Source: an uncultured archaeon (lineage in GTDB: Archaea; Aenigmatarchaeota; Aenigmatarchaeia; QMZP01). From it: DNA of 64,000 nt. Location: assembly GCA_964555875.1 (NCBI GenBank), contig CAZKUD010000003.1, forward strand, positions 14,659-78,658, written 5' to 3'. Positions 2,672 to 33,395 of this stretch are shown one piece after another. The notes beneath the pieces were generated by a model. It made no database searches and was not told the DNA's origin. It saw only the letters and a program-made list of their open reading frames with translations. Each line of letters begins with the position of its first letter. Within the stretch, counting starts at the first letter, position 1. The translations under genes and the position numbers were made by a program.

Positions 2672-2714
2672 GCGGTCACCTAATTATTTATGTAACAGAG
2701 CTGATATATAATCC

Positions 2715-12055: not shown

Positions 12056-12086
12056 CAAATTAAAGTATCGGATTCAAAAGAAGTAT

Positions 12087-17721: not shown

Positions 17722-18428
17722 AGGCTGTCATACTGGCCTCCGGCGCGGCCACCAGGCTCAGGCCGCTTACGGACAATGTGCCCAAGTGCCTCATAGAAGT
17801 CAATGGGGACACAATACTGGGAAGAATGCTGAGGGGGCTGGAAAGGAACGGGGTAAAGGATATCCTGATAACCACCGGCCACATGGGAGATGCTGTCAGA
17901 GAGTACGTGAAAAGCAATTTTCCGGGCCTTAACGTAGAGTATGTTCATAATCCCATGTTTGGGGACACAAATTACATATATTCCATGTGGCTTGCCAAAG
18001 ACAAGGTGACCGATGATGACATCCTGCTCCTTCACGGGGACCTGGTTTTTGACGAGACGCTCCTCGAAAGGGCGGTGAATGTAACCGGCAGCATGGTACT
18101 GGTCAACAAAAGCGTGCCTCCACCAGAGAAGGACTTCAAGGGCCTTGTTGTGGATGGGCACGTGAAGAACGTGGGAGTGAACGTGTTTGGGGATGGGGCA
18201 TTCTTCCTGGCCCCGATGTACAGGCTTTCCAAGGAAGCTTTCAAGGTATGGATGTCTGAGATAAACCGCTTTGTGGGCAATGGGAAGGTCAAATGCTATG
18301 CAGAGGATGCTTTCAACAACGTATCACATATAATAAAGGTTGCCCCCCTGTACTACACAGAATTCTGTATGGAAATAGATACCCCGGAAGACCTGGAAAA
18401 GGCAAAAAAGGCGCCCGAGATGGCCTGA
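17718..18428 (+). CDS. Nucleotidyltransferase (LicC/sugar-phosphate NTP-transferase fold); candidate phosphonate cytidylyltransferase
   Basis: AVILASGAATRLRPLTDNVPKCLIEVNG is the G-x-G-x-R-L signature. ATGA overlap with the upstream ADH gene. Confidence 0.7.
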   Translation: MKAVILASGAATRLRPLTDNVPKCLIEVNGDTILGRMLRGLERNGVKDILITTGHMGDAVREYVKSNFPGLNVEYVHNPMFGDTNYIYSMWLAKDKVTDDDILLLHGDLVFDETLLERAVNVTGSMVLVNKSVPPPEKDFKGLVVDGHVKNVGVNVFGDGAFFLAPMYRLSKEAFKVWMSEINRFVGNGKVKCYAEDAFNNVSHIIKVAPLYYTEFCMEIDTPEDLEKAKKAPEMA

Positions 18429-18489: not shown

Positions 18490-18903
18490 TTATTTCAGTA
18501 TCCCGAACGTCAGCCTCTTGTGGCCGTTGAAGTTCCAGAAGACCACTATCAATATGGACAGCATCTTGGCCAGCATGTACCAGAGCCCGAAGAACTCGAC
18601 GAACACAAAGAGGAACATTTGGTTTAGGGCAAGCCCAACCATGGCAACGGCCACAAAAAGGCCGAACTGCTTTGCTATTTTTTTGCTCTTGTTCTTGAAA
18701 TTGAGGTACTTGTTAAGGGAGTAATCTGTCGCCATGCCCGCTATATAGGACAGTCCCGCAGAGAACAAGTACCATATGCCTAGGAATTCTGTCAGGGAGA
18801 ATAGCAGCCCCAAGTCAACAAGCGCAGCTATGCCACCGAAGAACATGTAGTTTATGAAGAGCCTCATGTCCTGCTTCCCGAATATCGGTTTTATCACATC
18901 CAT
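18490..18903 (-). CDS. GtrA-family membrane protein
   Basis: 137 aa with 4 TM segments and the GtrA-like motif FINYMFFGGIAALVDLGLLF. Confidence 0.7.
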   Translation of the reverse strand: MDVIKPIFGKQDMRLFINYMFFGGIAALVDLGLLFSLTEFLGIWYLFSAGLSYIAGMATDYSLNKYLNFKNKSKKIAKQFGLFVAVAMVGLALNQMFLFVFVEFFGLWYMLAKMLSILIVVFWNFNGHKRLTFGILK

Positions 18904-18906
18904 GTT

Positions 18907-19677
18907 TCAACTGACCCTGAATTTCTCGACTTCCCTTATTCCCCTGACGTGTAGCATGTAGACCATCAGCGCCTTGAGTATATTGGCGCTGTAGCCCACG
19001 AGTTCGGAGAATGACGGGTGCCGGGATTCCTTCCCGTAATGGGTAGGTATGGGCCTTTCCGTTATTTTCAGGCCCTTTATCTTGAACTGTATGAGGATGT
19101 CTGTATCGAACTCGTATGCGTCAGAACATTTCTTGAAAGGGACCTGATTCAGGGCGGCGCACCTGTAGACCCTGAACCCGGAGTGGTACTCCGAGAGCTT
19201 CAGCTTCAGCACGAAGTTTTCGATTCCGGTGAGGAACTTGTTGCCAATCAGCTTGAAGACTGGCATGCCCCCCCTCCTTGGGTTGCCCTCCATCCTTGAA
19301 CCGAAGACCATATCTGATTTGTCGCTCTTTATGGCGTCCAGAAGTGTGGGTATCTTCTCTGGAGCGTACTGGGCATCGCCGTGGAGCATCACAACGTAAT
19401 CATATCCCCTGTCTATGGCATACTGGTAGGCCACCTTCTGCGTGCCGCCGTATCCCAGGTTTCTCTTGTTCTTCAGGACGGTCAGGTTTGACATCCCCTT
19501 CCTTTTCTTGTACTGTACCCCAACGAGGTATGTGCTGTCCTGGCTGTCGTTGTCTATTATGAATATTTCCTTCACGACGTCCTTTATCTCCTTGGGTATC
19601 CTGTCTATGACCAGCGGGAGGGTATGGGCCACGTTATAGGCAGGTATGAATATGGCCACCTTCTCCTTCCTTTTCAT
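18907..19677 (-). CDS. Glycosyltransferase family 2 (polyprenyl-phosphate glycosyltransferase type, pairs with GtrA)
   Basis: VAIFIPAYNVAHTL, IFIIDNDSQDST and MLHGDAQY. The start at 19677 gives an ATGA overlap with rfbH; the 5' extension to 19842 overlaps rfbH and is low-complexity. Confidence 0.75.
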   Translation of the reverse strand: MKRKEKVAIFIPAYNVAHTLPLVIDRIPKEIKDVVKEIFIIDNDSQDSTYLVGVQYKKRKGMSNLTVLKNKRNLGYGGTQKVAYQYAIDRGYDYVVMLHGDAQYAPEKIPTLLDAIKSDKSDMVFGSRMEGNPRRGGMPVFKLIGNKFLTGIENFVLKLKLSEYHSGFRVYRCAALNQVPFKKCSDAYEFDTDILIQFKIKGLKITERPIPTHYGKESRHPSFSELVGYSANILKALMVYMLHVRGIREVEKFRVS

Positions 19678-21014
19678 CGTCCTCCCCTCCTCGATTTCAG
19701 GAAGCTGCCTATTCTTTCTGCCATGTAATCCAGCATCTCTTCTGTGATGCCCGGGTATACCCCGACCCAGAAGGTATTGTTCATTATTTTGTCCGTTTTC
19801 TCCAGGCCGCCGACTGTCCTGTGCTCCACTCCATTGAAACATGGCTGCCTGGTTATATTGCCTGAGAAGAGCAGCCTTGTGGCAATCTTGTTATCCTCGA
19901 GGTAGCTGACGATATCGGTCCTTGAGAACGGCGCCCCATCCTTCACGGTTATTGGGAATCCGAACCAGCTGGGGTCCGAGTTCTCAGTTGGCTTTGCGAA
20001 GGACAGGAGATTTTCGTGCTCATTGAGCCTTGCGTGAAGGCCCTTCCAGTTCCTTTTTCTGGCATCCACGAACCCCGGGAGCTTCCGGAGCTGCTCGACC
20101 CCTATGGCAGCCTGCATGTCTGTCAGCTTTAGGTTGTATCCCCTGTGGGAGTATATGTATTTATGGTCATAACCGTATGGCAGGGTGCCGAGCTTCCATT
20201 TGAACCTCTTCTTGCAGGTATCGTCGTGGCCCGGCTCGCACCAGCAATCCCTGCCCCAGTCTCTGAAGGACTCTATCAGCCTCTTCAACTGTGTGTCGTT
20301 GGTCACCAGTGCGCCCCCCTCTCCCATGGTCATGTGGTGCGGGGGATAGAAGCTGCACGTGGATATGTGCCCGAAGGTGCCTGTGTGTTTTCCCTTGTAT
20401 TTGGAACCCAGGGCATCGCAGTTGTCCTCTATCAGCCACAGGCCGTGCTTCTTGCATACCCTGCCTACTGTATCAAGGTCGAAGGGGTTGCCAAGGGTGT
20501 GGGCCAGGAATATGGCCTTTGTCTTGTCAGTCACTGCCTCTTCAATCCTGCTGCAGTCGATGTTAAGTGTGTCCTGGTTCACATCAAGGAATACCGGCAC
20601 CAGGCCGTTCTGGATGATGGGATTAACGGTTGTGGGGAAAGCGCATGCCACTGTTATGACCTCATCTCCCGGCTTGAGATGCCTCTCCCCCAGCTTGGGG
20701 GACGTGAGGGCAGACACCGCAAGCAGGTTGGCGGATGAGCCTGAGTTGGTAAGGGAGCAGTACTTGGCTCCCAGGAATTCTGAGAACTCTTTCTCGAATC
20801 GCCTGGCGAATCTTCCGGATGTCAGCCAGAAATCGAGGGACGCCTCCATGAGCGATTTTATCTCCTCGGCATCATACACCCTACCAGAGTACTTTATGTA
20901 TGTCTTCCCTGGCTTGAAGCTTTCCCTTCTCTTGTGGACTGCCTCAAAGTGCCTTTCAGCTATCTTACGTGCCTCCTTTCTCAGGGACTCGTCTTCTGCT
21001 TTATTTTCCATCAT
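19674..21014 (-). CDS. rfbH: CDP-4-keto-6-deoxy-D-glucose 3-dehydrase (E1; RfbH/DdhC/AscC type, PMP- and Fe-S-dependent)
   Basis: DegT-fold protein in which SFYPPHHMTMGEGG carries His where aminotransferases have the PLP-Lys. The Cys pattern C-x57-C-x1-C-x7-C was counted directly (DNC...RDCWCEPGHDDTC). Confidence 0.8.
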   Translation of the reverse strand: MMENKAEDESLRKEARKIAERHFEAVHKRRESFKPGKTYIKYSGRVYDAEEIKSLMEASLDFWLTSGRFARRFEKEFSEFLGAKYCSLTNSGSSANLLAVSALTSPKLGERHLKPGDEVITVACAFPTTVNPIIQNGLVPVFLDVNQDTLNIDCSRIEEAVTDKTKAIFLAHTLGNPFDLDTVGRVCKKHGLWLIEDNCDALGSKYKGKHTGTFGHISTCSFYPPHHMTMGEGGALVTNDTQLKRLIESFRDWGRDCWCEPGHDDTCKKRFKWKLGTLPYGYDHKYIYSHRGYNLKLTDMQAAIGVEQLRKLPGFVDARKRNWKGLHARLNEHENLLSFAKPTENSDPSWFGFPITVKDGAPFSRTDIVSYLEDNKIATRLLFSGNITRQPCFNGVEHRTVGGLEKTDKIMNNTFWVGVYPGITEEMLDYMAERIGSFLKSRRGGR

Positions 21015-22122
21015 TATCTAAAGTCTCCATGTAATTATCTATCTCCTTCTCCGTGGCCTCCCTCAGGCCGTCTCCCTTCTGGCTCCCATAATACCTCTTG
21101 TACCAGTCCACCGTTCTCTTAACAGTGTCATTTATACCGTACACTGGCTTCCAGCCAAGGGCGGAACACGCCTTCTCTATGTTGAGTTTGAGCAGTTTGG
21201 CCTCATGGGGCTTTCTGGAACCATCTACCGTATATTCCCCCCTGCCCCAATGCTTTATCAAGAGCTTGACCAGTTCCTCCACTGGTATTATGTTGCTGTC
21301 GTTTGGCCCGAAATTCCATGCCCCGCAGTATTTCGCCCCCCCTTTTCTCATCAGGGCGCCAAGCAGGAGGTAACCACAGAGCGGGTCAAGGATATATTGC
21401 CATGGCCTCACTGCACCAGGGGACCGGATGCTTATGGGCTCGCCCTTTGATATGGCCCTTATGCAGTCAGGAACTATTCTGTCAATTCCCCAGTCGCCCC
21501 CTCCTATGACATTGCCGGCCCTGACAGAAGAAAGGGCGACCTTGTTGGAGCTGTCCCCGTCACGCTGGCTGAAAAAGGACCTCCTGTATGCGCTTGTAAC
21601 CAGCTCTGCACAGCCCTTGCTGCAGCTGTACGGGTCGTATCCGCCCATAGGGTCGGTCTCCCTGTAGCCTCTGTCACATTCCATGTTCTCGTAGCACTTG
21701 TCGCTGGTAACATTCACACAAACCTTGGTGCTGCCAGACTTTCTGACACATTCCAGCACATTGATGGTTCCCATCACGTTCGTCTCGAATGTTAGCTTGG
21801 GCTCCTGGTAGGACGGCCTCACGAGTGATTGGGCAGCCATGTGGAAGACGAATTCAGGACAGTGTTCACTGAAAACGGACGCTAGCCTGCCCTCGTCCCT
21901 CACATCCCCCTTTATGTGGGTGACCAGATCATCAAGCCCTATGGAATCGAAGAGGTTGGGGATGCTAGGCGGCTCTAGGGAATATCCTATTACCTCAGCT
22001 CCCATGCGGTTGAGCCAGAGGGAGAGCCAGCTGCCCTTGAACCCCGTATGCCCAGTAACGAGCACCTTCTTTCCGCCGTAAGCTTCCCGCAGGGCTTCAG
22101 CCGTGCTTGATCTTCCAGTCAT
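21001..22122 (-). CDS. rfbG: CDP-glucose 4,6-dehydratase
   Basis: KKVLVTGHTGFKGSWLSLWL, a YSCSKGCAE (YxxxK) motif and about 370 aa, all typical of RfbG/DdhB. Confidence 0.85.
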   Translation of the reverse strand: MTGRSSTAEALREAYGGKKVLVTGHTGFKGSWLSLWLNRMGAEVIGYSLEPPSIPNLFDSIGLDDLVTHIKGDVRDEGRLASVFSEHCPEFVFHMAAQSLVRPSYQEPKLTFETNVMGTINVLECVRKSGSTKVCVNVTSDKCYENMECDRGYRETDPMGGYDPYSCSKGCAELVTSAYRRSFFSQRDGDSSNKVALSSVRAGNVIGGGDWGIDRIVPDCIRAISKGEPISIRSPGAVRPWQYILDPLCGYLLLGALMRKGGAKYCGAWNFGPNDSNIIPVEELVKLLIKHWGRGEYTVDGSRKPHEAKLLKLNIEKACSALGWKPVYGINDTVKRTVDWYKRYYGSQKGDGLREATEKEIDNYMETLDNDGK

Positions 22123-22555
22123 ATGGTATCTTATCCGTGTTCGGATCCATCCTCTTTATTTCATCAGGGTCGTGTGGTATGGTGGCGCAGTTGGCCACTA
22201 TCGAGGTTTCGTCGCCGACTCCCCTGAAGCCGTTCCAGACCATCGGGGGCACCTTCACCAGGCAATAGTTGTCCTGGCCCATGACAATCTCCATTATGTT
22301 TCCCTTGGTAGGCGAACCTTCCCTGGCATCATACAACACGAGTTTTATGTTGCCCTTGATTACCGCATAGTTGAGGGTCATCTTCTCATGTATGTGCCAT
22401 CCCTTCACGACGCCGGGATGGACAGAAGAGAAGTATATCTCCCCGAATTTCTCAAAGATGGGGTCATCGCTCCTGAGCATATGGTATATGCATCCCCGCT
22501 CGTCCTGTATCTTCTTCAGGGGCTTCACGACCACTCCTTCTATTGTGCTTTTCAT
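22097..22555 (-). CDS. RmlC-like cupin, NDP-4-keto-6-deoxyhexose 3,5- or 5-epimerase family
   Basis: 152 aa with DERGCIYHM and GWHIHEKMTLNYAVIKG (cupin His). The start at 22555 gives an ATGA overlap. The ORF-track extension to 22708 is rejected. Confidence 0.65.
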   Translation of the reverse strand: MKSTIEGVVVKPLKKIQDERGCIYHMLRSDDPIFEKFGEIYFSSVHPGVVKGWHIHEKMTLNYAVIKGNIKLVLYDAREGSPTKGNIMEIVMGQDNYCLVKVPPMVWNGFRGVGDETSIVANCATIPHDPDEIKRMDPNTDKIPYDWKIKHG

Positions 22556-23499
22556 TTCCCTCCCCCTTTCTTGTACCAGTCTATGGTCAGCTTCAGGCCT
22601 GTTTCCAGGACCATGTTCTTGGGATGCCACCCCAGCATCCTCTCCGCCTTGCTTATGTCGGCGCAGCAGAGCCATACCTCGTTGCTCCTGTGCTCCAGAG
22701 CATCCCACTGGGGATTGCCAGAACCCACTATCTCCCTTATCTTGTTGACCACGTCCTTCACGCTCACGGCCTTTCCTGTTCCTATGTTGAAAACCTCATG
22801 CCTGCTTGGGAATTTCCGGGACGATAGCAGCTTCATGTAAGCATCAACTATGTCCTCCACGTACACGAAATCCCATTTTTGCTTTCCTGTTGTCATTTTT
22901 TGGGTTTCCCCATCCATCATGCTCCTTATGGAGTGGGGTATTAGCTTCCTTTTGTGGTCGGCTGGCCCGTAAGGGGGGAACAGCCTGAGGGTGACAGCAC
23001 GCAGGCTTCCGTTCTTGGTATAGAAGTCACAGGCCTGCTCAGCGTATATCTTTGTGAGCGCATAAAGGTTCACCGGTTCCAGCTCTGATTCCTCTGTGAG
23101 CTTCCCGTCGCTTGCCTTGTATACGAAAGCCGTGCTGGTGTTGACAAAGAGCCTGGTTCCATGCTCCCTGGATGCTTCCAGGAGGTTTATGGCGCCTGTT
23201 GTGTTGGCGCCCATCATGGACTTTATTTCATCTGACCTATGATTGACAGCATAGTAGGTTGCAAGATGGAAGACTGCGTCCGGCCTGAAATCAGAGAATG
23301 CGGAAGAAACGCCGCCAGTGTCGCTCAGGTTTGCGTCATATGCCTTTATCTTGCTGATGCTGTCCTCTATGCGCCAGGTATCTGATTCAGTCCTCTTTAT
23401 TATGCCAACCTCAAAACCGTCTTTCAGCAACCTCTTCACCAGATGGGAGCCTATGAAGCCGGTGGCTCCCGTTATCATCACTCTTTTCATCTCAGTCAT
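22552..23499 (-). CDS. NAD(P)-dependent nucleotide-sugar reductase/epimerase (extended SDR); candidate CDP-4-keto-3,6-dideoxyhexose 4-reductase
   Basis: VMITGATGFIGSHL and YALTKIYAE (YxxxK). It sits between rfbF and the cupin epimerase. ATGA overlap at 23496-23499. Confidence 0.7.
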   Translation of the reverse strand: MTEMKRVMITGATGFIGSHLVKRLLKDGFEVGIIKRTESDTWRIEDSISKIKAYDANLSDTGGVSSAFSDFRPDAVFHLATYYAVNHRSDEIKSMMGANTTGAINLLEASREHGTRLFVNTSTAFVYKASDGKLTEESELEPVNLYALTKIYAEQACDFYTKNGSLRAVTLRLFPPYGPADHKRKLIPHSIRSMMDGETQKMTTGKQKWDFVYVEDIVDAYMKLLSSRKFPSRHEVFNIGTGKAVSVKDVVNKIREIVGSGNPQWDALEHRSNEVWLCCADISKAERMLGWHPKNMVLETGLKLTIDWYKKGGGK

Positions 23500-24275
23500 C
23501 CCCATGTCTTCCAGAAAGCCTTTTTATTGTTCCATAGGGTGTTGAGGAAAACCATGTCCCTATAGGTATCCATGCAGCCCCACTGCCCCCTGTGGACATG
23601 CACCATGAGCTGGCCCTCTTTTGCTAGCTTTTCAAGGGGGCCCATCTCGAAATCACAGTTCTTTTCCAGGGACAGATAATCGAATATCTTCCTGTTGAAC
23701 ACGAAGAACCCACCGTTTATCAGGCCCTCCGAAAGCTGGGGTTTTTCTGTGAAGGACACCACCTTGTCCCCGCTTATCACCATCTCTCCGAACCTGGAGG
23801 GCGGCCTGACACCCGTGACTGTCCCTATCTTGCCGTGCTTTTTGTGGAATTCTAGAAGCTCCTTTATGTTTACGTTGGCCACCCCGTCCCCGTATGTCAG
23901 CATGAACGTGTCCCCGTCTATGTATTTTTCTATCTGCTTTATCCTGGAGCCCTTCAGGTTGGCTTCTCCAGTGTCGGCAAGCGTGACTTTCCAGTCCCCC
24001 TCGCCATGGTTCCTGTGTATTTCTATCTTGTTGTGGTCTCCCAGCTCTATTGTGAAGTCGTTCTTCAGGACGCCGTAATTGTAGAAATATTCCTTTATCT
24101 TCTCGCCCTTGAATCCCAGGCAGAGGACGAAATCTTTGAATCCGTAGTTGGAATACGTCTTCATTATGTGCCAGAGCATGGGCTTTCCCCCTATCTCTAC
24201 CATGGGTTTTGGCTTGGATTCTGTCTCTTCCTTTAGCCTGGTGCCTGTTCCGCCGCATAGGATAACGACTTTCAT
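23496..24275 (-). CDS. rfbF: Glucose-1-phosphate cytidylyltransferase
   Basis: MKVVILCGGTGTRLKEETESKPKPMVEIGGKPMLWHIMK matches the RfbF/DdhA N-terminus nearly canonically; 259 aa. Confidence 0.85.
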   Translation of the reverse strand: MKVVILCGGTGTRLKEETESKPKPMVEIGGKPMLWHIMKTYSNYGFKDFVLCLGFKGEKIKEYFYNYGVLKNDFTIELGDHNKIEIHRNHGEGDWKVTLADTGEANLKGSRIKQIEKYIDGDTFMLTYGDGVANVNIKELLEFHKKHGKIGTVTGVRPPSRFGEMVISGDKVVSFTEKPQLSEGLINGGFFVFNRKIFDYLSLEKNCDFEMGPLEKLAKEGQLMVHVHRGQWGCMDTYRDMVFLNTLWNNKKAFWKTWG

Positions 24276-25084
24276 AATTTACTCCGAACCTCAGGCTTTT
24301 TATAAGTTTGCCTAATTTGCTTCTTGGCCTTTATTAATAAACCGACGCTTGTCCCGGAATTCTTGAAGAGGGCGTTATCAAGCTTTATGATTCCTGCAAC
24401 CGCCCTTTGGAGTGTCCCCGGGGCGGCCTTTCTTCCCGATATCATGGGCTTGCCTGGCCTCGATCTGTTAGTGGGATCGGGCTTGACTGACCTGGATAGG
24501 ATAAAAGAAAGGTAGTTCTCTAAGAGGCCCGCAAGATAATGGTTCAGGTATTCCATCTTTTCTATACTGAATCCTGCCCCCTCTATGATGCATGTGAGCA
24601 GCTCCCTGCTGTACAGCCTTAGGTGACCGAATCCCCACATGCCAATGGGCAGGTGCGCCCCAAGGGGCCTCAAGAAGCCGTTGACGGGGTCGTATGTCCA
24701 GGGGTATCTTGAATGGGGCACGGAAAGGACAAGATTCCCCCCATCCTTCAGGACCCTGAATATCTCAGATACCACTTTCTTGTCGTCCCTTATGTGTTCC
24801 AAGACATCCATACAGATTACGGCATCAAAGGAGTTGTCCCTGAAGGGAAGTTCCTCTCCCCCTGAAATTGCATAGTGGTTGTTGCCGCCACTGCCCAGTT
24901 TTGCAGACATGATATCGCTCCTGTTTATGTCCACCCCCACAGTACGGCTGAACATGGCAGACAGTGTCCTGTCGTATTCCCCGTCGCCGCAGCCCACGTT
25001 TAGCACAGTCCTTCCTTTGCCTATGTTTTCCATGGCTGTTTTCATCCTGTTGAAATAGCTGGGAGCTAAGGTCTTGATGGACAT
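24272..25084 (-). CDS. Class I SAM-dependent methyltransferase
   Basis: Motif I VLNVGCGDGEY and motif post-II FDAVICMDVLEHI. ATGA overlap with rfbF. Confidence 0.7.
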   Translation of the reverse strand: MSIKTLAPSYFNRMKTAMENIGKGRTVLNVGCGDGEYDRTLSAMFSRTVGVDINRSDIMSAKLGSGGNNHYAISGGEELPFRDNSFDAVICMDVLEHIRDDKKVVSEIFRVLKDGGNLVLSVPHSRYPWTYDPVNGFLRPLGAHLPIGMWGFGHLRLYSRELLTCIIEGAGFSIEKMEYLNHYLAGLLENYLSFILSRSVKPDPTNRSRPGKPMISGRKAAPGTLQRAVAGIIKLDNALFKNSGTSVGLLIKAKKQIRQTYKKPEVRSKL

Positions 25085-25091
25085 GGCAATC

Positions 25092-25808
25092 TTAAATGTT
25101 ATTCCGTATGTTTTTCCAGGTGCTGGTTTCTTCCTTTACTTTTCTGTCTTTCTTGCCCTGGCGTTTCCTTATCATCCAGAAGATCCAGAAGAGAGGTATG
25201 TATACGCCGTAAAAATACATGAAGTATTGAAGAAGGTCCAGAACGCCGAGCACATAAAGCACAGGGAGAAACATGTTCGCAAGGGTTATGTCATAGGCAA
25301 ATTTGGCCACACGCCCCGATTTCTTTTCCCTTCTAAGGGCCATGTGCTCTGCCCTGAGCTCGTGGAGCCTTAGCATCATCATGAATACCGAGGCAGATAT
25401 GCCCAGGAGCAGAAGTATCAAGCTGCCGCCCCTGAGGAACAGGCCAAGGCCTATGAAGATGTGGACGAAGTAGTACATGTCGTGACCCGCTATGTCAAGC
25501 AGCCTGCCATAGTAGGTTGGTCCGTGGTACCTGGCCAGCTCTCCGTCAACATGGTCGAAGACGTAGGCCACATTGAGCAGGATGGCACTCACGACTATGT
25601 TCCACCAACTGCCGCTCACAAGGAACGGGAAGAAGGAAGAGGCCATGAATATCAGCTGTATCACTGTGGCGGTGTTCGGGGCTATCCCCATAATGAGGAA
25701 GAGCTTTGTAACGTATATGGACACTTTCCTCATTACCCGCGTGTACAGGAATTCCTTCCCCAGTTCAGGGGGCTGGCATATTTTTCTGAGTTCCTTTATA
25801 GACTCCAT
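25092..25808 (-). CDS. CDP-alcohol phosphatidyltransferase-family membrane protein
   Basis: The signature D-x2-D-G-x2-A-R-x8-G-x3-D-x3-D is present as DHVDGELARYHGPTYYGRLLDIAGHD. Multi-TM, 238 aa. Confidence 0.75.
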   Translation of the reverse strand: MESIKELRKICQPPELGKEFLYTRVMRKVSIYVTKLFLIMGIAPNTATVIQLIFMASSFFPFLVSGSWWNIVVSAILLNVAYVFDHVDGELARYHGPTYYGRLLDIAGHDMYYFVHIFIGLGLFLRGGSLILLLLGISASVFMMMLRLHELRAEHMALRREKKSGRVAKFAYDITLANMFLPVLYVLGVLDLLQYFMYFYGVYIPLFWIFWMIRKRQGKKDRKVKEETSTWKNIRNNI

Positions 25809-27557
25809 TCAATCACCTTCCAGGCAATCGGTCCTGAATATCATTGACACCGGGACACCCCCTGCCGCGACAGAGTAAAGAGGCTCGCATCCTTCCATGT
25901 AGCTAGCCATCTCAACGGCATTGTAGGGCTCTGATGTGGAGGAGGAATCTACTATGCTTCTCCTGTTCAGGATGACGTAATAGTCTGCCCCCTCTTTCTC
26001 TGTTGAAATTATTATATCATTCCTTAAAATTCCTTCTTGGTCGAATATGGCAAGGTTGAGCCCTCTCGAGTCCAGGTCCGAAGAGGGCACCCTCTCCCCT
26101 ATCTGCCCTATGTCTCCATGTTTGTATGCATTGAATATGTTCCAGGCCATTGGCACATGGACAACTGCTTTCTCTTCCAGGTTGCTGTTCATCCAGGGAA
26201 CAAGATGCAGATACGATTCTCCCCAATAGTCGAGTTCAAATCCGGCCGCATATGCCCCCCCTGTGCCGCCCACAATTTCACTGTAATAGCTCACCATGTT
26301 GGGCATGCCACCAGCAAGGGGAATGACGGCAGAAGCCGCTATTATGGCTGCGAGGATGGCTGCTATATGTATCTTGTGCCCATATTTGTCTGACAATAGG
26401 CTGATGATTCTGTCTGCACCGATGCCGGATATCATTGCCACAAAGGGGAATATCGGCACGAACAATCTAACGACATCGTGGGGATCACCGAATGGAGTAG
26501 AAAAGAACGCCAATAAGAGGAATGCGCACAGGAAAGGCAACATGAATGCCCTGTCTTTTAGGGACACCGTATTCTTCAGCCCGAAGTATGTGCCCGCGAG
26601 CGCCAGTATCAGTATCGCTGCAGGCATGGTGACAGAAGACATGACCCATGGATAGTGCCAGGGGGGGCTCTGGAATATCTGCCCCAGGTAATAGACCGGA
26701 ACATGTATGTTGGCTGACTGGTTGGAGTAAAACCCGAAGTAATCTAGTAGCCTGGGAACAGTGTCCTTCCAGAGCCATGGCCAGGCAGCTATGAGCACCA
26801 GCGGCGTAAGCATTATGGAGGAATACGCAACAAGCGGTACTCTCCTTAGGGCCGCCACCATATTAGAGTGTTTTATCTTCCTGGCGGCGGGAACCAGCCT
26901 GTCCCTGTAGCTTATCAGCAGCCAGAGGGGTATGGCAACGAACAGTATGTATGCCTGTATCTTGCTTGCGAGTGCAAGTCCCATCATGACTCCCGTAAGG
27001 AGACCGAACCTCCAGTCACGGAGCCCCTTCCAGAAGAAATAAGATGCTATCAGCATCATTATGGCGGCTGTCACGTCAAGCGTCATGTAATGGGAGTGTG
27101 AAAAGAACCTCGGCATGAATATCAGGGACAAAGACGCGAAGGTGCCTGCCCTAATGCTGTATGCCTCTGATGTGAAGAGGAACAGCACAAAAACGCCTAT
27201 TGCCACCAGCAGCATGATGGCAATCCGGTGAGCCGCCACGGAGGACCAGAAATCAAGCTGTTGCCCGTTGAGGAAGAAAGTAATTGCCCAGGTGAAACCT
27301 GAGATGGTCTGGGCCAGTCTGGGTCTGTTATGCCAGCATCTTCCCCATCCGTCTCCCTCGGGCACATGATCTATGGTGCACATCTCCATTGGGGGGTTAC
27401 CTGTGGCCCAGGAATATATCGAATGCATCCTGACCTTTGATGCCGCAAGGTATCTGGTCTCATCCCATACCAGACCAGTCGTGTCTATCGTGGACACTGA
27501 AAGCGCCAAGTACAGAAGTACCAGTAATATGCCTAAAAGGTAAATGTTCTTGTTCAT
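25809..27557 (-). CDS. GT-C fold membrane glycosyltransferase (ArnT/PMT-like), third copy in window
   Basis: 582 aa with a multi-TM core and a C-terminal soluble domain. An early loop holds the acidic motif VWDETRY (a DE-type motif typical of GT-C enzymes). Confidence 0.6.
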   Translation of the reverse strand: MNKNIYLLGILLVLLYLALSVSTIDTTGLVWDETRYLAASKVRMHSIYSWATGNPPMEMCTIDHVPEGDGWGRCWHNRPRLAQTISGFTWAITFFLNGQQLDFWSSVAAHRIAIMLLVAIGVFVLFLFTSEAYSIRAGTFASLSLIFMPRFFSHSHYMTLDVTAAIMMLIASYFFWKGLRDWRFGLLTGVMMGLALASKIQAYILFVAIPLWLLISYRDRLVPAARKIKHSNMVAALRRVPLVAYSSIMLTPLVLIAAWPWLWKDTVPRLLDYFGFYSNQSANIHVPVYYLGQIFQSPPWHYPWVMSSVTMPAAILILALAGTYFGLKNTVSLKDRAFMLPFLCAFLLLAFFSTPFGDPHDVVRLFVPIFPFVAMISGIGADRIISLLSDKYGHKIHIAAILAAIIAASAVIPLAGGMPNMVSYYSEIVGGTGGAYAAGFELDYWGESYLHLVPWMNSNLEEKAVVHVPMAWNIFNAYKHGDIGQIGERVPSSDLDSRGLNLAIFDQEGILRNDIIISTEKEGADYYVILNRRSIVDSSSTSEPYNAVEMASYMEGCEPLYSVAAGGVPVSMIFRTDCLEGD

Positions 27558-28630
27558 TTTTCACCGAAAACTCTCCAGCTCCTGCCGTCTATGTCTGTTA
27601 TCCAAATGTTTTTAAGCCCGGCCTCCTTTAGCCAGCCTTCCATGTCTTCCCTCCTGTAATAGTTGTCCTTCGGAGTTGCCAGGAAGTCGAATGTGTCGGC
27701 ATGCTTCACCCTGAAGGGGAACTTTGCATAGCCTTTGAAGGGGGTCATCTCTGCCAGGCCGTTGAGCCTGAGCGCCCGGAGGGCGTGATACATGCCGTTT
27801 GATGAATGGTATAACATTGCCGGAAGGTAGCAGAGATAGTACAGCATCCCATGTGGCAGCCTCCTTGTCACCTTCCTTAGCCTTCCCAACACAGCCACCT
27901 TGAACCACCTGCCCTCCCTCCCGTAGACCCAGATGAATACCGAGCTGCCCCTCTTCGCGAACTTTGCCAGGCTGAGGTATGCGCCCTTCGGGTCCGGCAG
28001 GTGGTGTATCACGCCGATAGAGAATATGAAGTCGAACTTGCTCCTGAAGGGAAGGTTGTATGCGTCCCCCTGCACGATGTGCGCCTTTGGGAACTTCCTG
28101 ACGTTGTGGTATGCGGCCTCAACTGCATGGCTCAGGTCAAGGCCGACCACTTCTGCCCCGAACTCGGCGCTGTAGTATGTGTGCCGCCCGAAGCCGCAGC
28201 CGACATCAAGGACCAGCTTGTTCCTAAAAAAGGAAGGCTTTATGGGCTTTATGTAATTGAGGAAATTGGCCCTGAACTCTGGGAACATCTCATGGAACCT
28301 GTTCCACTGGAAACCGAATGACTCCAGCGTGTCCCTCTTCATCCTGGTGTCCTTCCCCTGCTTCTTTCCTTCCATCTCTTTTGGGAGCTTGCTGCTGTAT
28401 TTTTCCAGGAAGGCCGAGTATCTCTTTTCCACCTGGGAATCCCGAAGGGAGTCGGGCAGCATCCTGGGTATGCCGCCTATTATAGGGTACCATCTCCTGC
28501 ACTTGCAGGTGAGGACGCCATCTGTCACTTCCTTTATGCCTGACTCCCCCTTCTCCTCCCCGAAGGGGTGGAGTTTAAGGCTCCCCTTGCATTCGGGGCA
28601 AATCAGGATGTCCATCAGGCTCAGTTTCAT
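27554..28630 (-). CDS. Trm112-like zinc-ribbon domain fused to a class I SAM methyltransferase
   Basis: The N-terminus ILICPECKGSL...LTCKCRRWYPIIGGIPRML is a Trm112p-like fold. The methyltransferase motif is VLDVGCGFGRH. Confidence 0.7.
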   Translation of the reverse strand: MKLSLMDILICPECKGSLKLHPFGEEKGESGIKEVTDGVLTCKCRRWYPIIGGIPRMLPDSLRDSQVEKRYSAFLEKYSSKLPKEMEGKKQGKDTRMKRDTLESFGFQWNRFHEMFPEFRANFLNYIKPIKPSFFRNKLVLDVGCGFGRHTYYSAEFGAEVVGLDLSHAVEAAYHNVRKFPKAHIVQGDAYNLPFRSKFDFIFSIGVIHHLPDPKGAYLSLAKFAKRGSSVFIWVYGREGRWFKVAVLGRLRKVTRRLPHGMLYYLCYLPAMLYHSSNGMYHALRALRLNGLAEMTPFKGYAKFPFRVKHADTFDFLATPKDNYYRREDMEGWLKEAGLKNIWITDIDGRSWRVFGEK

Positions 28631-28636
28631 AGTATC

Positions 28637-29962
28637 CTACAAGGTCTTGTATCTTATGCCCAGCTCCTTTGCTCTTGATGCATCGAAGAATCTCCTGACA
28701 TCCACCAGTATCGGGTTCTGGGAAGATGCGCTTTTCACCGAGGACATGTCCATCGCCCTGAATGCGTCATGGTCGGTTACCAGCACCACACAGTCCATTT
28801 CCTTGGCCTCATCCATGCTCTCTATGCGCCTTATCCCGAACTGCTTTTCTATGTCTTCTTTCTTTAGGTGTGGCTCATATGCGAATACGTTCACGCCCTT
28901 GGATAGCAGCTCCTTGGTTATTGCCTCTGCCGGGGTATTCCTGTAATCCTTCACGTTCTTCTTGAATGTGAGGCCGAGGAGCAGGACGTTTGAGCCGTTC
29001 ATGCTTTTTTTCACCTCGTTGAGGGAGGCGGATATGATGCTGACGACGTGCATGGGCATGTAATTGTTGATGTCCCTCCCTGCGAGTATGACCTTGGAGT
29101 CGTATCCCATGTCCTTTGCCTTGTGCACCAGGTAGTACGGGTCCACAGGTATGCAGTGTCCTCCCACAAGCCCCGGCCTGTAGGGATGGAAGTTCCATTT
29201 GGTGCCTGCTGCCTCAAGCACCTTGTTGACATCTATGCCCATCTTCCCGAATATCAGGGCAAGTTCGTTGACAAGGGCTATGTTCAGGTCCCTCTGTATG
29301 TTCTCTATGACCTTCGCCGCTTCCGCTGTCTCTATGCTATCGGTTTTGTGGGTGCCCGCCTCTGTCACCTTCCCGTACAGCTCGGCAAGCACGTCCGTCG
29401 TCTCCTTGTCCTGACCCCCCACCACCTTGACTATCTTCTTCAGCGTATGCTCCCTGTCGCCCGGGTTTATCCTCTCTGGGGAATACCCCAGAAAGAAGTC
29501 CGTTCCTGCCTTCATGCCTGACGCCTTCTCCACTGCGGGCCCCAGTATGTTCCTTGTGACTCCCGGGTACACTGTGGATTCTAGCACTATGACCGCTCCC
29601 TTCTCTGCCGCCCTTCCTGCCACCGAACCAGCTGACTCGACGTACGCGAGGTCCGGCTCGTTTCCTTTCCTCAGGGGGGTCGGCACGCTTATGATGAAGA
29701 AGTCCGAGCCCTTTATGTCTTTCTCGTCGGAGGTGAACGTTATGTTCCCTGTGCTTATGGCACCCTCCAGCTCTTCCCTGCTTATGTCATTGTTGGTGTC
29801 CATCCCCTTGGAAAGGGTCTCCACCTTCTCCTTATTGATGTCGAACCCCCTCACCTTCAGGCCAGAGTTAGCAAATCCCAGTGCCAGGGGCAGGCCCACG
29901 TAGCCCAGGCCTAATATGCAGACTGTAGCGCTGCCGTCCCTAAGACTTTCCCTTGCTTTCAT
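28637..29962 (-). CDS. Nucleotide-sugar 6-dehydrogenase (UDP-GlcNAc/ManNAc/Glc dehydrogenase family, TviB/WbpO-like)
   Basis: VCILGLGYVGLPLALGF and the catalytic Cys region GLVGGHCIPVDPYY; 441 aa. Confidence 0.8.
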   Translation of the reverse strand: MKARESLRDGSATVCILGLGYVGLPLALGFANSGLKVRGFDINKEKVETLSKGMDTNNDISREELEGAISTGNITFTSDEKDIKGSDFFIISVPTPLRKGNEPDLAYVESAGSVAGRAAEKGAVIVLESTVYPGVTRNILGPAVEKASGMKAGTDFFLGYSPERINPGDREHTLKKIVKVVGGQDKETTDVLAELYGKVTEAGTHKTDSIETAEAAKVIENIQRDLNIALVNELALIFGKMGIDVNKVLEAAGTKWNFHPYRPGLVGGHCIPVDPYYLVHKAKDMGYDSKVILAGRDINNYMPMHVVSIISASLNEVKKSMNGSNVLLLGLTFKKNVKDYRNTPAEAITKELLSKGVNVFAYEPHLKKEDIEKQFGIRRIESMDEAKEMDCVVLVTDHDAFRAMDMSSVKSASSQNPILVDVRRFFDASRAKELGIRYKTL

Positions 29963-30881
29963 AGAACTTCACTGTCTCCTCCAGGCCTTCCTTCAGGGTG
30001 AACTTTGGCTCATATGACAGGAGCTTCCTGGCAAGGGATATGCCCGCCAGGGAATGTTTTATGTCGCCTTTCCTCTCTTCTGTATGCTCTGCCTTGATGC
30101 ATGTTCCCATTATCTCGTTCAGTATGTCTACAAGCATGTTTATCGTGACCCTTTCTCCCCTGGATATGTTGATTGCCCTACCTGCGGCCCTGGCGCTGTT
30201 CTCCATGGCCAGGATGTTGGCTGCCACCACATCCTTCACATAAGTGAAGTCCCTTGTCTGCTCTCCGTCGCCGTATATGGTCGGGCTCTTGCCGACCATT
30301 ATGCTGTTTATGAACTTGGGTATGACCGCGGAATATTGTGACGTCGGGTCCTGGTTCTCCCCGAAGACATTGAAGTACCTGAGCGAGACCGTCTCCATGC
30401 CGTGTATCTTATGGAAGACCTGGCAGTAATATTCCCCTGTGAGCTTGGAAACGGCATAAGGGGACATGGGCGCAGGCGCCATGGTCTCCACCTTGGGCAA
30501 GGTTTCCGATTCCCCATAGGCCGAGGATGACGCAGCATAAACGAATTTCTTGACCCCGGCATCCGCTGCAGCCACAAGCATGTTGAGCGTTCCCCCTATG
30601 TTGATGTCATTGGAGAGCACGGGCTCCTTCACTGACCTGGGGACAGAAGGGAGCGCAGCTTGGTGGAAGACGCAGTGGACGCCGTCGACTGCCTTCCTGA
30701 CCGTTTCCATGTCTCTGATGTCGCCTTCCAGTATCTCTGCCCTCTCCAGGCCGTCCAGGTTCTCCTTCTTTCCTGTAATCAGGCTGTCAAGTATCCTTAC
30801 ATTGAACCCTCTCTCGAGAAGCGCCTTGGCCAGGTTGGAACCTATAAAACCTGCGCCGCCTGTTACCAGAACTGTTTTCAT
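29940..30881 (-). CDS. NAD-dependent nucleotide-sugar 4-epimerase (TviC/WbpP-like)
   Basis: VLVTGGAGFIGSNL and SPYAVSKLTGE. It lies immediately upstream of the dehydrogenase. Confidence 0.8.
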   Translation of the reverse strand: MKTVLVTGGAGFIGSNLAKALLERGFNVRILDSLITGKKENLDGLERAEILEGDIRDMETVRKAVDGVHCVFHQAALPSVPRSVKEPVLSNDINIGGTLNMLVAAADAGVKKFVYAASSSAYGESETLPKVETMAPAPMSPYAVSKLTGEYYCQVFHKIHGMETVSLRYFNVFGENQDPTSQYSAVIPKFINSIMVGKSPTIYGDGEQTRDFTYVKDVVAANILAMENSARAAGRAINISRGERVTINMLVDILNEIMGTCIKAEHTEERKGDIKHSLAGISLARKLLSYEPKFTLKEGLEETVKFYESKGKS

Positions 30882-30914
30882 ATTCCACCATTATTATGAA
30901 TCATTTAAATAGGT

Positions 30915-31868
30915 TTACCCACTTCGCCCCCTGATGCTTCCGGAGAGGAGACCGAGCCCGAAAACCGCGCTTCTGAACATCAACATTATCGGGGACACCA
31001 AGGCGACTCCGGCTCCCATCCTGCGGGAACTGGCGGAAAAGGGCAGCGTGGTGATGAACAAGAGCAGGAGCAGGGCCGCGGCGGGCACGGGACCGATAAA
31101 AGGCAACGTAGCTATGGAAGCCAGGAAAAGGCAGACTAGGCCTATCTGGACCTTCAGGGACTGGGGAGTGTAGGAATCCTTCACTGCCTTCTTGGGGTGC
31201 TTCTTGTAGAGCAACACCCGCCAGTAGGCCCTCCAATATTTCTGCTTCAGGTACCTCGTCAGGCTGTCCGGATGGGTGTGGTAGACTATTGCCTTCCGGT
31301 TGAAGACCAGTTTGTGGCCCCTGGCCGCCATCCTGAATGAGAGTTCCGGGTCCTCCCCGGATGCCTTCGGGAAGCTCTTGTCAAACCCCCCGAACTTGCT
31401 GAACACGGACTTTCTGTAGGCGGCTGCGTACGTGCCTATGAAGTCTATGCAGTCCCCTTGGGACATCCTCCTGTACCTGTCCTCTATCTCTGCCTGGCAA
31501 AACCTGGCGACAAGGGATTTCTGCCTCGTCCTGTAGGCACCCTGGACCCCGGACACGCCCCTGTCGCTGAACGGCCTGAGCATCTCCCCGACCCAGTTTT
31601 TATCAGGCACGCAGTCAGCGTCGGTGAAAAGCAGTATGTCGCCCCTGGCGGCCTTCGACCCCATGTTCCTGGCCGCAGCAGGCCCCCTGTTCCTCTGGCT
31701 GATGACTTTTGCCCCAAGCTTCCTGGAGACCTCGGCCGTCCTGTCAGCGGAGCCGTCGTCCACCACTATCACTTCCAACGGCTTCTTGGTCTGGCGTTTC
31801 AGGGCACTGAGGCAATCACTTATAGCCTTCTCGGCATTGTAAGCAGGTATTATCACTGACGCCTTCAT
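30915..31868 (-). CDS. Glycosyltransferase family 2
   Basis: ASVIIPAYNAEKAI, VIVVDDGSADRT and FTDADCVP, with C-terminal TM segments. Confidence 0.8.
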   Translation of the reverse strand: MKASVIIPAYNAEKAISDCLSALKRQTKKPLEVIVVDDGSADRTAEVSRKLGAKVISQRNRGPAAARNMGSKAARGDILLFTDADCVPDKNWVGEMLRPFSDRGVSGVQGAYRTRQKSLVARFCQAEIEDRYRRMSQGDCIDFIGTYAAAYRKSVFSKFGGFDKSFPKASGEDPELSFRMAARGHKLVFNRKAIVYHTHPDSLTRYLKQKYWRAYWRVLLYKKHPKKAVKDSYTPQSLKVQIGLVCLFLASIATLPFIGPVPAAALLLLLFITTLPFSASSRRMGAGVALVSPIMLMFRSAVFGLGLLSGSIRGRSG

Positions 31869-31973: not shown

Positions 31974-33395
31974 ATGAAAATCTTCATCGCCAACCCCCCG
32001 TTCATAAAGAACTTCAACCGACAGGTGAGGTGGTCAGCAAAGACGTCGGGCGGTCTCCACCCACCCATCTATCTTGCATACGCCGCGGCTGTACTGGCCA
32101 AGAAGCATGAGGTCAAGCTCGAGGACGCGGTCGCGGAGGGAAAGACTGTGGAGGGGTTCCTGAAGGACGTCAAGTCGTTCGGTCCTGACATGGTCGTGAT
32201 GGAGACGTCAACGCCGTCCATAGTCAACGATTCCAGGATAGCCGAGGAGATACGGAAGTTCTCGAAGGCCAAGATTGTGCTCACCGGTCCGCATACATCG
32301 GCCATGCCGGAGAGGACGCTCAAGGAGTCCATAGCGGATGCTGTAACAATAGGGGAATACGATTACACCCTGCCCGAAATCGCCGAAGCGTTCGAGAGGG
32401 GCGACACCCTGAAAGGCATAAAGGGGTGCGCATACAGGGAAGGCGGGAAGGCCGTCGTAAACCCCAGGAGGGAGCTGATAAGGGACCTGGACAAGCTGCC
32501 ATGGCCGCTCAGGGACCAGCTGCCGAACGAGAAGTATTCCGACACGCTCATGACGTCTCCCCTGACCTTCATAGTGACCGCAAGGGGCTGCCCCTTCCTA
32601 TGCAACTACTGCAACTGGCCCTCCACCATGTTCGGGCATATGATAAGGAAGCGAGACCCCATGGATGTGGTGGACGAGGTGGAGCACTGCGTGAAGAAAT
32701 ACAAGCTGAAGAGCTACAAGTTCTTTGACGACACATTCACCTGCGACAAGAACCACGTCAAGATAATCTGCAATGAACTGATAAAGAGGAAGATAAAGGC
32801 CAAGTGGATATGCAATGCCAGGGTGGACACGCTTGACGAGGAGACCATGAGGCTTATGAAGAAGGCCGGATGCAGCCTTTTCAAGATAGGTGTGGAGTCG
32901 GGCGACCAGGACATACTGGACTGGATAAAGAAGGGCACCAAGATAGAGCAGATAAGGAGCTTCTTCAAGCTGACAAAGAAGGTGGGGATACAGACATTCG
33001 CCTCCTTCATGATAGGCTATCCCCAGGAGACGGAGGAGACCATAAGGAAGACGTTCGACCTGGCTAAGGAGATAGGGCCGGACATGGCCCAGTTCGTCAT
33101 ACTTCAGCCCCTTCCCGGGACCGAACTCTGGGACTGGATGCAGAAAAAGGGGATGATACCCAAGGACATAAAGTGGGACGGCTACATAACAGAAGAGGGT
33201 TATGTGGACCTTGTTTTCAAGCACCCCAAGTTCTCGCAGGACGAGCTCAGGGAGATATGCTCCAGGCTCTGGAAAGGCTACTACATGAGGCCGGGATACA
33301 TAGCCAAGAGGGTCAAGAGGGGCATCACTTCTTCAAGGGAGATAAAGAGGAATGCTGCAGGCGTCAAGAAGATATTCAGGTACAGGAAGGCCTGA
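31974..33395 (+). CDS. B12-binding-domain radical SAM enzyme (class B rSAM family)
   Basis: N-terminal cobalamin-binding-like Rossmann region, then ARGCPFLCNYCNWP, which is the CxxxCxxC radical SAM cluster motif. Confidence 0.8.
   Translation: MKIFIANPPFIKNFNRQVRWSAKTSGGLHPPIYLAYAAAVLAKKHEVKLEDAVAEGKTVEGFLKDVKSFGPDMVVMETSTPSIVNDSRIAEEIRKFSKAKIVLTGPHTSAMPERTLKESIADAVTIGEYDYTLPEIAEAFERGDTLKGIKGCAYREGGKAVVNPRRELIRDLDKLPWPLRDQLPNEKYSDTLMTSPLTFIVTARGCPFLCNYCNWPSTMFGHMIRKRDPMDVVDEVEHCVKKYKLKSYKFFDDTFTCDKNHVKIICNELIKRKIKAKWICNARVDTLDEETMRLMKKAGCSLFKIGVESGDQDILDWIKKGTKIEQIRSFFKLTKKVGIQTFASFMIGYPQETEETIRKTFDLAKEIGPDMAQFVILQPLPGTELWDWMQKKGMIPKDIKWDGYITEEGYVDLVFKHPKFSQDELREICSRLWKGYYMRPGYIAKRVKRGITSSREIKRNAAGVKKIFRYRKA

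Follow-up and report, generated by a model that had tools for sequence, protein, structure and literature searches.

A CDP-alcohol phosphotransferase with a variant signature motif as the best, though unproven, candidate for phosphonate attachment in an aenigmatarchaeal genome

The target gene and its fold

The window analysed here (the whole stretch of 64,000 nucleotides, positions 14,659 to 78,658 of contig CAZKUD010000003.1, assembly GCA_964555875.1) comes from the 1.09-Mb, 89% complete assembly of an uncultured DPANN archaeon of the Aenigmatarchaeota. Two convergent gene blocks lie in it: a four-gene phosphonate operon on the plus strand (13728-18428) and a glycan operon of 14 co-directional genes on the minus strand (18490-31868). 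The ninth gene of the latter, at 25092-25808, encodes a CDP-alcohol phosphotransferase (CDP-AP) of 238 amino acids and is the subject of this study (hereafter the target). Judging from sequence and gene context, there is about an even chance that its product takes the CMP-activated phosphonate made next door and attaches it to a lipid or to a glycan carried on one; it is the best, but unproven, candidate in the genome for this attachment step.

The target is a real gene and, by both profile and fold, a member of the CDP-alcohol phosphotransferase superfamily. On the minus strand it forms an open reading frame from ATG to TAA; read on the plus strand, the same interval is interrupted by a stop codon. 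The profile PF01066 (CDP-OH_P_transf) matches residues 43-186 with 38.2 bits (E 2.4e-9), the curated gathering threshold being 22 bits. In the AlphaFold2 model (pLDDT 78, pTM 0.72) helices span residues 4-11, 21-40, 44-64, 68-95, 99-127, 130-155, 177-189 and 193-217, which amounts to an N-terminal interfacial helix followed by about six transmembrane helices, as in AF2299 and PIPS. The 19 first-ranked Foldseek matches of this model are all CDP-APs (probability 1.0), headed by AF2299 (4Q7C/4O6M, TMq 0.59-0.65), with PIPS and IPCT-DIPPS also among the best. Eleven orthologues were identified, with 45-59% identity to the target.

An earlier, sequence-only reading of this DNA had described a multi-transmembrane protein of this family and length, lying between a methyltransferase gene and a GT-C gene in a co-directional block of 14 genes. 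All of this agrees with our results: the flanking genes are a Methyltransf_11 gene (24272-25084) and a PMT_2 gene (25809-27557), and every gene of the block is on the minus strand. The strand of the target itself had been left unstated, and its signature motif had been mis-described, as shown in the following section.

A histidine in place of the fourth aspartate

The canonical CDP-AP signature, D1xxD2GxxAR-x8-GxxxD3xxxD4, is located on the second and third transmembrane helices. The corresponding segment of the target (25479-25556, minus strand) encodes the peptide DHVDGELARYHGPTYYGRLLDIAGHD, in which the residues are spaced D85-x2-D88-G-x2-A-R93-x7-G101-x3-D105-x3-H109-D110. The sequence-only reading had quoted this peptide, which is indeed found in the translation, but had taken it for the complete signature. 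D1, D2, G, A, R, the second G and D3 are present; the loop, however, is x7 rather than x8, one residue shorter than the canonical one, and the position of the fourth aspartate (D3+4, one helical turn past D3) is occupied by His109, with Asp110 following at D3+5.

All motif residues, including H109 and D110, are unchanged in 11 of 11 orthologues. When 129 non-redundant relatives were aligned, the H109 column coincided with the canonical D4 column, where histidine is the most frequent residue (61 sequences), followed by aspartate (22), glycine (17), alanine (10) and others (19). The target is thus a member of a large clade, as yet uncharacterised, that has histidine instead of the fourth signature aspartate. 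In the HMMER pairwise alignment of the target with AF2299, D110 is paired with D4, but only by means of a gap inside a helix. The alignments thus disagree on which residue matches D4, and the catalytic role may fall to His109, to Asp110 or to both.

With the fourth aspartate lost, the target might be a catalytically dead or repurposed paralogue, for instance a scaffold or a lipid-binding subunit of the GT-C enzyme encoded next to it, and the occurrence of G, A, N, T or Q instead of histidine in other clade members could be taken in the same sense. We consider this very improbable: D1, D2, G, A, R, the second G, D3 and the H109/D110 pair are invariant across orthologues of 45-59% identity, and the retention of histidine in 61 of the 129 relatives points to a function. 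A catalytic histidine is moreover documented in eukaryotic CDP-APs (CHPT1), although at another position (PMC10182977).

The histidine variant could not be used as a specific marker of linkage to phosphonate genes. Such linkage was seen for 15 of 106 relatives with a residue other than aspartate in the D4 column versus 1 of 22 with aspartate, numbers that are too small to separate the two groups and give no statistical support to the idea.

An accessory rather than a housekeeping enzyme

Three PF01066 genes are present in the genome: the target, a gene of 218 amino acids resembling archaetidylinositol-phosphate synthase (AIPS) and an open reading frame of 147 amino acids. The 218-residue protein has the canonical x8/D-x3-D motif, and its gene lies on another contig, back to back with the gene for inositol-3-phosphate synthase (MIPS). 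The AIPS model NF040950 gives 143 bits for this protein and 33.8 bits for the target, the equivalog cut-off being 180 bits. AIPS is the best NCBIfam match of the target, yet the target falls far under the cut-off of this model, as it does for the PIPS and serine-synthase models, the last of which gave no match to it. In our trees the orthologue group of the target forms a clade with a support of 99, far from the genome's own AIPS, from which it is separated by branches of more than 1.2 substitutions per site, and orthologues occur in just 3 of the 61 genomes of the order.

The low AIPS score, the separate clade and the separate AIPS gene beside MIPS led us to reject an identity of the target with a housekeeping AIPS or archaetidylserine synthase, and by these comparisons the target is an accessory, non-housekeeping CDP-AP. 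Clustering with housekeeping synthases and the lack of any other copy in the genome had been named in the sequence-only reading as grounds for abandoning its proposal; neither was found, and in addition to the 218-residue AIPS-like protein the genome encodes CarS.

The 147-residue open reading frame (contig C2 79411-79620 of genome G000; L003 1426-1869) carries the canonical DG-x2-AR-x8-G-x3-D-x3-D, but its transmembrane helices are too few to build the complete core of a CDP-AP. Truncation of a paralogue or a mis-called start may account for this.

Other families that might attach a phosphonate were also considered. Searches of the genome for LicD-family and TagF-type transferases found none, which leaves the target as the only recognisable enzyme in the assembly that could accept a small CMP-activated head group.

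The phosphonate operon

The first gene of the plus-strand operon (13728-15449) encodes a phosphoenolpyruvate mutase (PEP mutase, Ppm), which exceeds the cut-off of TIGR02320 (343.7 versus 319.55 bits) and carries a C-terminal nucleotidyltransferase (NTase) domain (NTP_transf_3, residues 341-447). It is followed by a phosphonopyruvate decarboxylase gene (Ppd, 15446-16582; TIGR03297, 386.7 bits, cut-off 312.5) and by the gene for an iron-dependent alcohol dehydrogenase (Fe-ADH, 16582-17721), which has the Fe-ADH Pfam domain and scores 175.9 bits, below the cut-off, on the Phn_Fe-ADH model. This enzyme is the predicted phosphonoacetaldehyde reductase, yielding 2-hydroxyethylphosphonate (HEP). The last gene (17718-18428) encodes a stand-alone LicC/PntC-like cytidylyltransferase, here called NTase2, with LicC (1JYK, 60 bits), IPCT (2XME) and PntC (6PD1) as its best PDB matches. 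NTase2 is predicted to make the CMP-activated donor.

Two further observations concern this pathway. An HD-domain protein gene (TIGR00295-like, 13020-13655, minus strand) is divergently paired with the Ppm-NTase fusion gene in the window. In a locus without PEP mutase (L006, 2177-3799), an HD protein is paired with a free NTase of 297 amino acids, followed by an MFS transporter, so that the HD-NTase pair predates or outlives the mutase domain. A relative genome of the same family, G008, has a HEP cassette that is built differently (contig C45; L161 1-7861): radical SAM/SPASM, a Fom1-like cytidylyltransferase-Ppm fusion with the transferase at the N-terminus, NTase, Ppd, Fe-ADH and a second NTase. 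No orthologue of the target was detected in the G008 genome, and no transferase is visible at its Ppm locus within the 7.9 kb before the contig ends.

Gene neighbourhoods of the relatives

To place the target among its relatives we retrieved the loci of 80 of them from genomes and of 59 from metagenomes and searched the flanks for homologues of window genes. Ppm and/or Ppd occur within 8 kb of the relative at 16 non-redundant loci, and 13 of these have a phosphonate-pathway gene (Ppm, Ppd, Fe-ADH or NTase) no more than 1.2 kb away. Most often the genes follow one another on one strand in the order Ppm-Ppd-(Fe-ADH)-NTase-CDP-AP (e.g. L026, L027, L031, L043, L071, L021, L035, L147 and L153). The hosts are widely scattered, comprising Woesearchaeota, Bathyarchaeia, Omnitrophota, Bacteroidota, Bacillota, Chloroflexota, Desulfuromusa, Binatia and metagenomes. 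Only some 4% of bacterial genomes encode PEP mutase (PMC8942020), and within the window's order 2 of the 61 genomes do; with so rare a gene, its adjacency to these CDP-APs is far beyond what chance would produce. Homologues of NTase2 (39-55% identity) lie directly upstream of, or convergent with, the relatives at nine loci (L098, L026, L027, L031, L043, L071, L131, L132 and L153).

The closest orthologue (59% identity) is on a contig of 6.7 kb, L098, where the order is PMT_2 gene, CDP-AP gene and methyltransferase gene, convergent with genes for NTase2 (55%) and, at the very end of the contig, Fe-ADH (51-55%). This is the arrangement of the window minus the intervening CDP-dideoxyhexose, GT2 and GtrA genes. 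In the window the target and the phosphonate genes share an island, 6.7 kb apart; in L098 the orthologue directly adjoins the tail of the operon. The same convergent slot is taken by an NTase in L007 and L160, but these are just 25-28% identical to NTase2. The GT-C gene (1934-3618) and the Fe-ADH gene (5826-6714) of L098 are each split into two adjacent open reading frames, through either frameshifts from assembly errors or decay of the genes.

A contig among those retrieved is probably mis-binned. CAZSVU010000059.1 (L005/L019), binned as 'uncultured Polyangiaceae bacterium' in a 9.1-Mb bin, agrees in protein lengths, Pfam calls and gene order, over the part that the two have in common, with L004, which belongs to a separate 1.1-Mb assembly. 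Upstream, L004 has genes of archaeal type, for RNA polymerase subunit L and for a TFIIS-type zinc ribbon.

The glycan operon around the target

Counted from 18490, the block that contains the target comprises genes for GtrA, a DPM-synthase-like GT2, RfbH, CDP-glucose 4,6-dehydratase, a 3,5-epimerase-like protein, an SDR, glucose-1-phosphate cytidylyltransferase and a methyltransferase, then the target, and past it a PMT_2 GT-C, a Trm112-methyltransferase fusion, a UDP-sugar dehydrogenase, an epimerase and a GT2.

The bond to the GT-C gene (PMT_2, 37.7 bits) is a close one. Its TGA stop codon abuts the ATG of the target, and a Shine-Dalgarno-like motif, GGTGAT, lies within its 3' end; judging from this arrangement, the two genes are translationally coupled. 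A GT-C gene also adjoins the orthologue in L098, L004, L007 and L008 and is two genes away from it in L006. On the other side, the SAM methyltransferase MT270 (Methyltransf_11, 78 bits) starts 7 nt after the target's stop codon and is the steadiest neighbour of the orthologues, with copies 46-57% identical beside them in L098, L004, L006 and L159. The fusion of a Trm112-like zinc ribbon with a SAM methyltransferase, identified by Pfam (27554-28630, minus strand), has a stop codon overlapping the GT-C start and copies of 53% identity in L004 and L007.

Beyond the block, on the plus strand at 31974-33395, is the gene for a B12-binding radical SAM enzyme, which reaches 323.6 bits on the NCBIfam model for HpnJ (below the cut-off of 577.6) and has the diol dehydratase AprD4 as its best PDB match (6FD2, 106.8 bits). 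Homologues (30-34%) stand beside CDP-AP relatives in L004, L006, L159, L009, L010, L022, L108, L133 and L152, and the enzyme thus recurs next to CDP-APs of this clade in both domains of prokaryotes, whether phosphonate genes are present or not. A Fom3-like methylation of CMP-HEP by this enzyme was considered but is not supported, its best matches, HpnJ and AprD4, being non-methylases; they suggest instead a rearrangement of a sugar or cyclitol. Pairs of GT2 and LPG_synthase_TM genes share islands with the HpnJ-like radical SAM enzyme, in the window (11315-13019, plus strand; 1718-2671, minus strand) as well as at L004 (12881-14567) and L006 (6487-8167). The set resembles the hopanoid head-group set HpnI/HpnL/HpnJ, and by this analogy Aenigmatarchaeota may have lipids with a cyclitol or an aminosugar as head group.

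The operon also supplies CDP-linked sugars, and the target could in principle move hexose-1-phosphate from CDP-glucose or a CDP-3,6-dideoxyhexose to polyprenol or another acceptor and so feed the GT-C enzyme. Glucose-1-phosphate cytidylyltransferase, CDP-glucose 4,6-dehydratase and RfbH are encoded just downstream in the same operon, two other loci (L036 and L025) also join a relative with CDP-hexose genes, and the tight coupling to a GT-C, an enzyme that needs a polyprenyl-phosphate-linked donor, calls for some explanation. The CDP-hexose genes, however, are found at no orthologue locus other than the window's, and the operon already has a DPM-synthase-like GT2 and GtrA for making a lipid-phosphate sugar. 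We know of no CDP-AP that uses a CDP-sugar, and of the roles discussed here this one seems to us the most far-fetched.

Proposed reaction and its alternatives

The donor, the acceptor, the part played by His109 or Asp110 and any activity at all are matters that we infer. If the target does attach the phosphonate, its substrate would be a small phosph(on)o-alcohol activated with CMP, bound on the cytoplasmic side of the membrane, where D85, D88 and D105, by homology with AF2299, DIPPS and PIPS, would hold the metal or metals and the CMP-phosphate moiety. An acceptor anchored in the membrane would then attack the distal phosphorus through its hydroxyl, with the help of His109 and/or Asp110, and CMP would be released. 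The donor in this organism would most likely be CMP-HEP or a tailored derivative, supplied by the convergent Ppm-NTase/Ppd/Fe-ADH/LicC-like NTase operon, and the product formed from CMP-HEP would be a lipid or glycan bearing a hydroxyethylphosphonate monoester. As acceptor one would expect either a lipid or a glycan linked to one, which the co-translated GT-C and the methyltransferases would go on to process; the constant coupling to a GT-C suggests one that is processed on the outer face.

A number of observations weigh against this proposal. Between the target and the phosphonate operon there are 6.7 kb, and the target is on the opposite strand, in a separate, convergent operon whose nearest CDP-linked metabolites are CDP-hexoses. 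Orthologues (46-47% identity) exist in two independent genomes that are without PEP mutase (G038 = G063, 82% complete, and G053 = G061, 90% complete), and a search of G053/G061 found no LicC/PntC-type NTase either. What stays constant around the orthologues is not Ppm but the PMT_2 GT-C, the methyltransferase of 250-270 amino acids, the Trm112-methyltransferase and the B12-radical SAM enzyme. That the target and PEP mutase are strictly inherited together can be rejected, the orthologue being present in 3 and Ppm in 2 of the 61 genomes, with the window's genome as the only overlap. The trees of the relatives, built with a quick search, are both star-like with a basal polytomy, and no phosphonate-linked sister group of the target emerges from either; linkage to phosphonate genes is scattered over at least 7 subclades, mixed with unlinked members whose flanks extend over a full 20 kb. 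The canonical catalytic or metal-binding Asp4 is replaced in the target, so that activity is not assured. Finally, to our knowledge no bacterial or archaeal CDP-AP has been shown biochemically to use a CMP-phosphonate.

Several of these observations would be expected if the target used a common CDP-alcohol and moved its phosphate ester (phosphoglycerol, phosphoethanolamine/choline or a polyol phosphate, for instance) onto whatever glycan or lipid the GT-C/methyltransferase/radical-SAM module builds, with the phosphonate operon feeding some other, unrecognised transferase. The orthologues in genomes without PEP mutase must use a donor that is not a phosphonate, the NTases paired with the orthologues in L007 and L160 are only distantly related to NTase2, many relatives with 20-kb flanks have NTases and no Ppm (for example L025, L036, L042 and the actinobacterial clade), and the conserved partners of the orthologues are non-phosphonate genes. 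Against this, the only sources of a CDP-alcohol in the island are NTase2 and the NTase fused to Ppm, the genome has no detectable transferase of the LicD or TagF type that could serve the phosphonate in the target's stead, and L098 sets the tail of a HEP operon directly against an orthologue. On balance we regard a phosphate-ester role as unlikely, although it deserves serious consideration.

Less probable still is that the target makes an accessory polar lipid (archaetidyl-X) from CDP-archaeol. The neighbouring enzymes would then provide the alcohol X-OH in the form of a sugar, cyclitol or polyol, or the free hydroxyl of 2-hydroxyethylphosphonate itself would serve. The genome does make CDP-archaeol (through CarS), a housekeeping CDP donor of this kind would suffice in the orthologue genome that lacks a LicC/PntC-type NTase, and the HpnJ-like radical SAM enzyme with its GT2/LPG_synthase_TM pairs resembles sets that tailor lipid head groups. 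However, in sequence as in fold the solved structures closest to the target are not CDP-DAG enzymes but AF2299 and IPCT-DIPPS, of the soluble-CDP-alcohol class, LicC-type NTases are paired with most orthologues and with many relatives, and the target stays far under the cut-offs of the AIPS, PIPS and serine-synthase models.

The phosphonate-installing role put forward in the sequence-only reading is thus partly upheld: the relatives linked to Ppm and Ppd, the L098 locus and the lack of LicD and TagF speak for it, while the separate operon, the orthologue genomes without Ppm, the identity of the constant partners and the non-canonical motif speak against it. The simplest reading of these mixed contexts is that the donor is modular, the transferase serving whichever CMP-activated head group the local cytidylyltransferase makes, and that in the lineages of the window and L098 a HEP supply has been plugged into this modular donor slot. 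We offer as a tentative extension that the clade with histidine for Asp4 may be a general, donor-modular installer of phosph(on)o-alcohols on prokaryotic surfaces, which in Aenigmatarchaeota has become fixed with a GT-C and methyltransferases. It would follow from such a general role, doubtful as it is at present, that the donor is HEP-based where a Ppm operon is present and a phosphate ester elsewhere, and that a DPANN archaeon displays a phosphonate lipid or glycan.

Comparison with known systems

The best sequence matches of the target are AF2299 and IPCT-DIPPS of Archaeoglobus fulgidus (4O6M/4Q7C and 4MND; profile E 2.3e-8 and 2.6e-4). These enzymes share with it an interfacial helix followed by six transmembrane helices and the D1xxD2GxxAR...G...D3 part of the signature, and like it they have as partner a cytidylyltransferase of the LicC/IPCT kind, the source of a soluble CDP-alcohol donor. 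Identity is nevertheless just 18-19%, and the target has no fused cytosolic domain, a histidine at D4, a loop shorter by one residue and an extra aspartate. The product of DIPPS, moreover, is a soluble osmolyte, whereas the target lies in a surface-glycan island. Housekeeping AIPS, though of the same superfamily, differs from the target in model score, genomic location and its canonical motif.

The use of CMP-phosphonates by CDP-OH transferases has already been predicted as a concept, and what is new here is a member with the histidine variant and coupling to a GT-C. Yu et al. reportedly predicted, in 2013, group 1 phosphonolipid clusters with CDP-alcohol phosphatidyltransferases. CDP-OH transferases occur in predicted 'Burkholderiales_CDP-OH'/group 1 phosphonolipid clusters together with two PntCs, one of them fused to Ppm, and the products of these clusters are also uncharacterised (Li & Horsman 2022, PMC8942020). 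Like the window, the group 1 clusters combine a fusion of Ppm with a PntC-type NTase, Ppd, a stand-alone second PntC and a CDP-OH membrane transferase. The Burkholderiales_CDP-OH clusters, however, are of the AEP/hydroxy-AEP type (AEPT, dioxygenase) and oriented towards lipids, while the window is of the HEP type (Fe-ADH, no AEPT), and the target, unlike their transferase, lies in a separate, GT-C-coupled glycan operon; the likeness is one of gene content and not the result of a sequence comparison. A Borg cluster provides a second precedent for a CDP-OH transferase taking a CMP-phosphonate (10.1101/2024.11.05.622173).

Eukaryotic choline/ethanolamine phosphotransferases give phosphonolipids from CMP-AEP (PMC9765203). 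In CHPT1 and CEPT1 (PMC10182977, PMC10156783), as in the role proposed for the target, the donor is a soluble CDP-alcohol and the acceptor a lipid hydroxyl, and a histidine in the active site is essential. These enzymes have ten transmembrane helices, though, their Foldseek similarity to the target is weak (E 0.66), and they keep all four aspartates, the catalytic histidine coming right after D3 (D3-H-x2-D4) instead of replacing D4. For prokaryotes, activation by PntC has been characterised and LicD-like enzymes have been suggested as the transferases (PMC6697681); our literature search found no characterised prokaryotic CMP-phosphonate transferase.

The attachment of nucleotide-activated phosphonates to surface molecules is the least understood step of phosphonate biology, its transferases being only predicted. 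The target and its relatives offer a small, expressible and well-defined candidate family for this step, recognisable by the mark D..DGE[LI]AR ... D-x3-H and by a recurrent slot directly after a cytidylyltransferase gene in archaea and bacteria alike. If the proposed role is correct, it would explain the route by which HEP-type phosphonates reach lipids and glycans and would matter for phosphorus cycling in marine waters and sediments and for what DPANN symbionts present on their surface. At the same time, the variety of contexts described above warns against labelling every CDP-AP gene of this kind as phosphonate-specific.

Gene starts in the glycan operon

Two open reading frames of the glycan operon, as listed, overlap their upstream neighbours, by about 170 nt (18907-19842, minus strand) and by 157 nt (22097-22708, minus strand). 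Their Pfam domains start at residues 64 and 54, respectively, and the true starts are probably internal methionines, near residue 56 (MKRKEK...) in the first and near residue 52 (MKSTIEG...) in the second.

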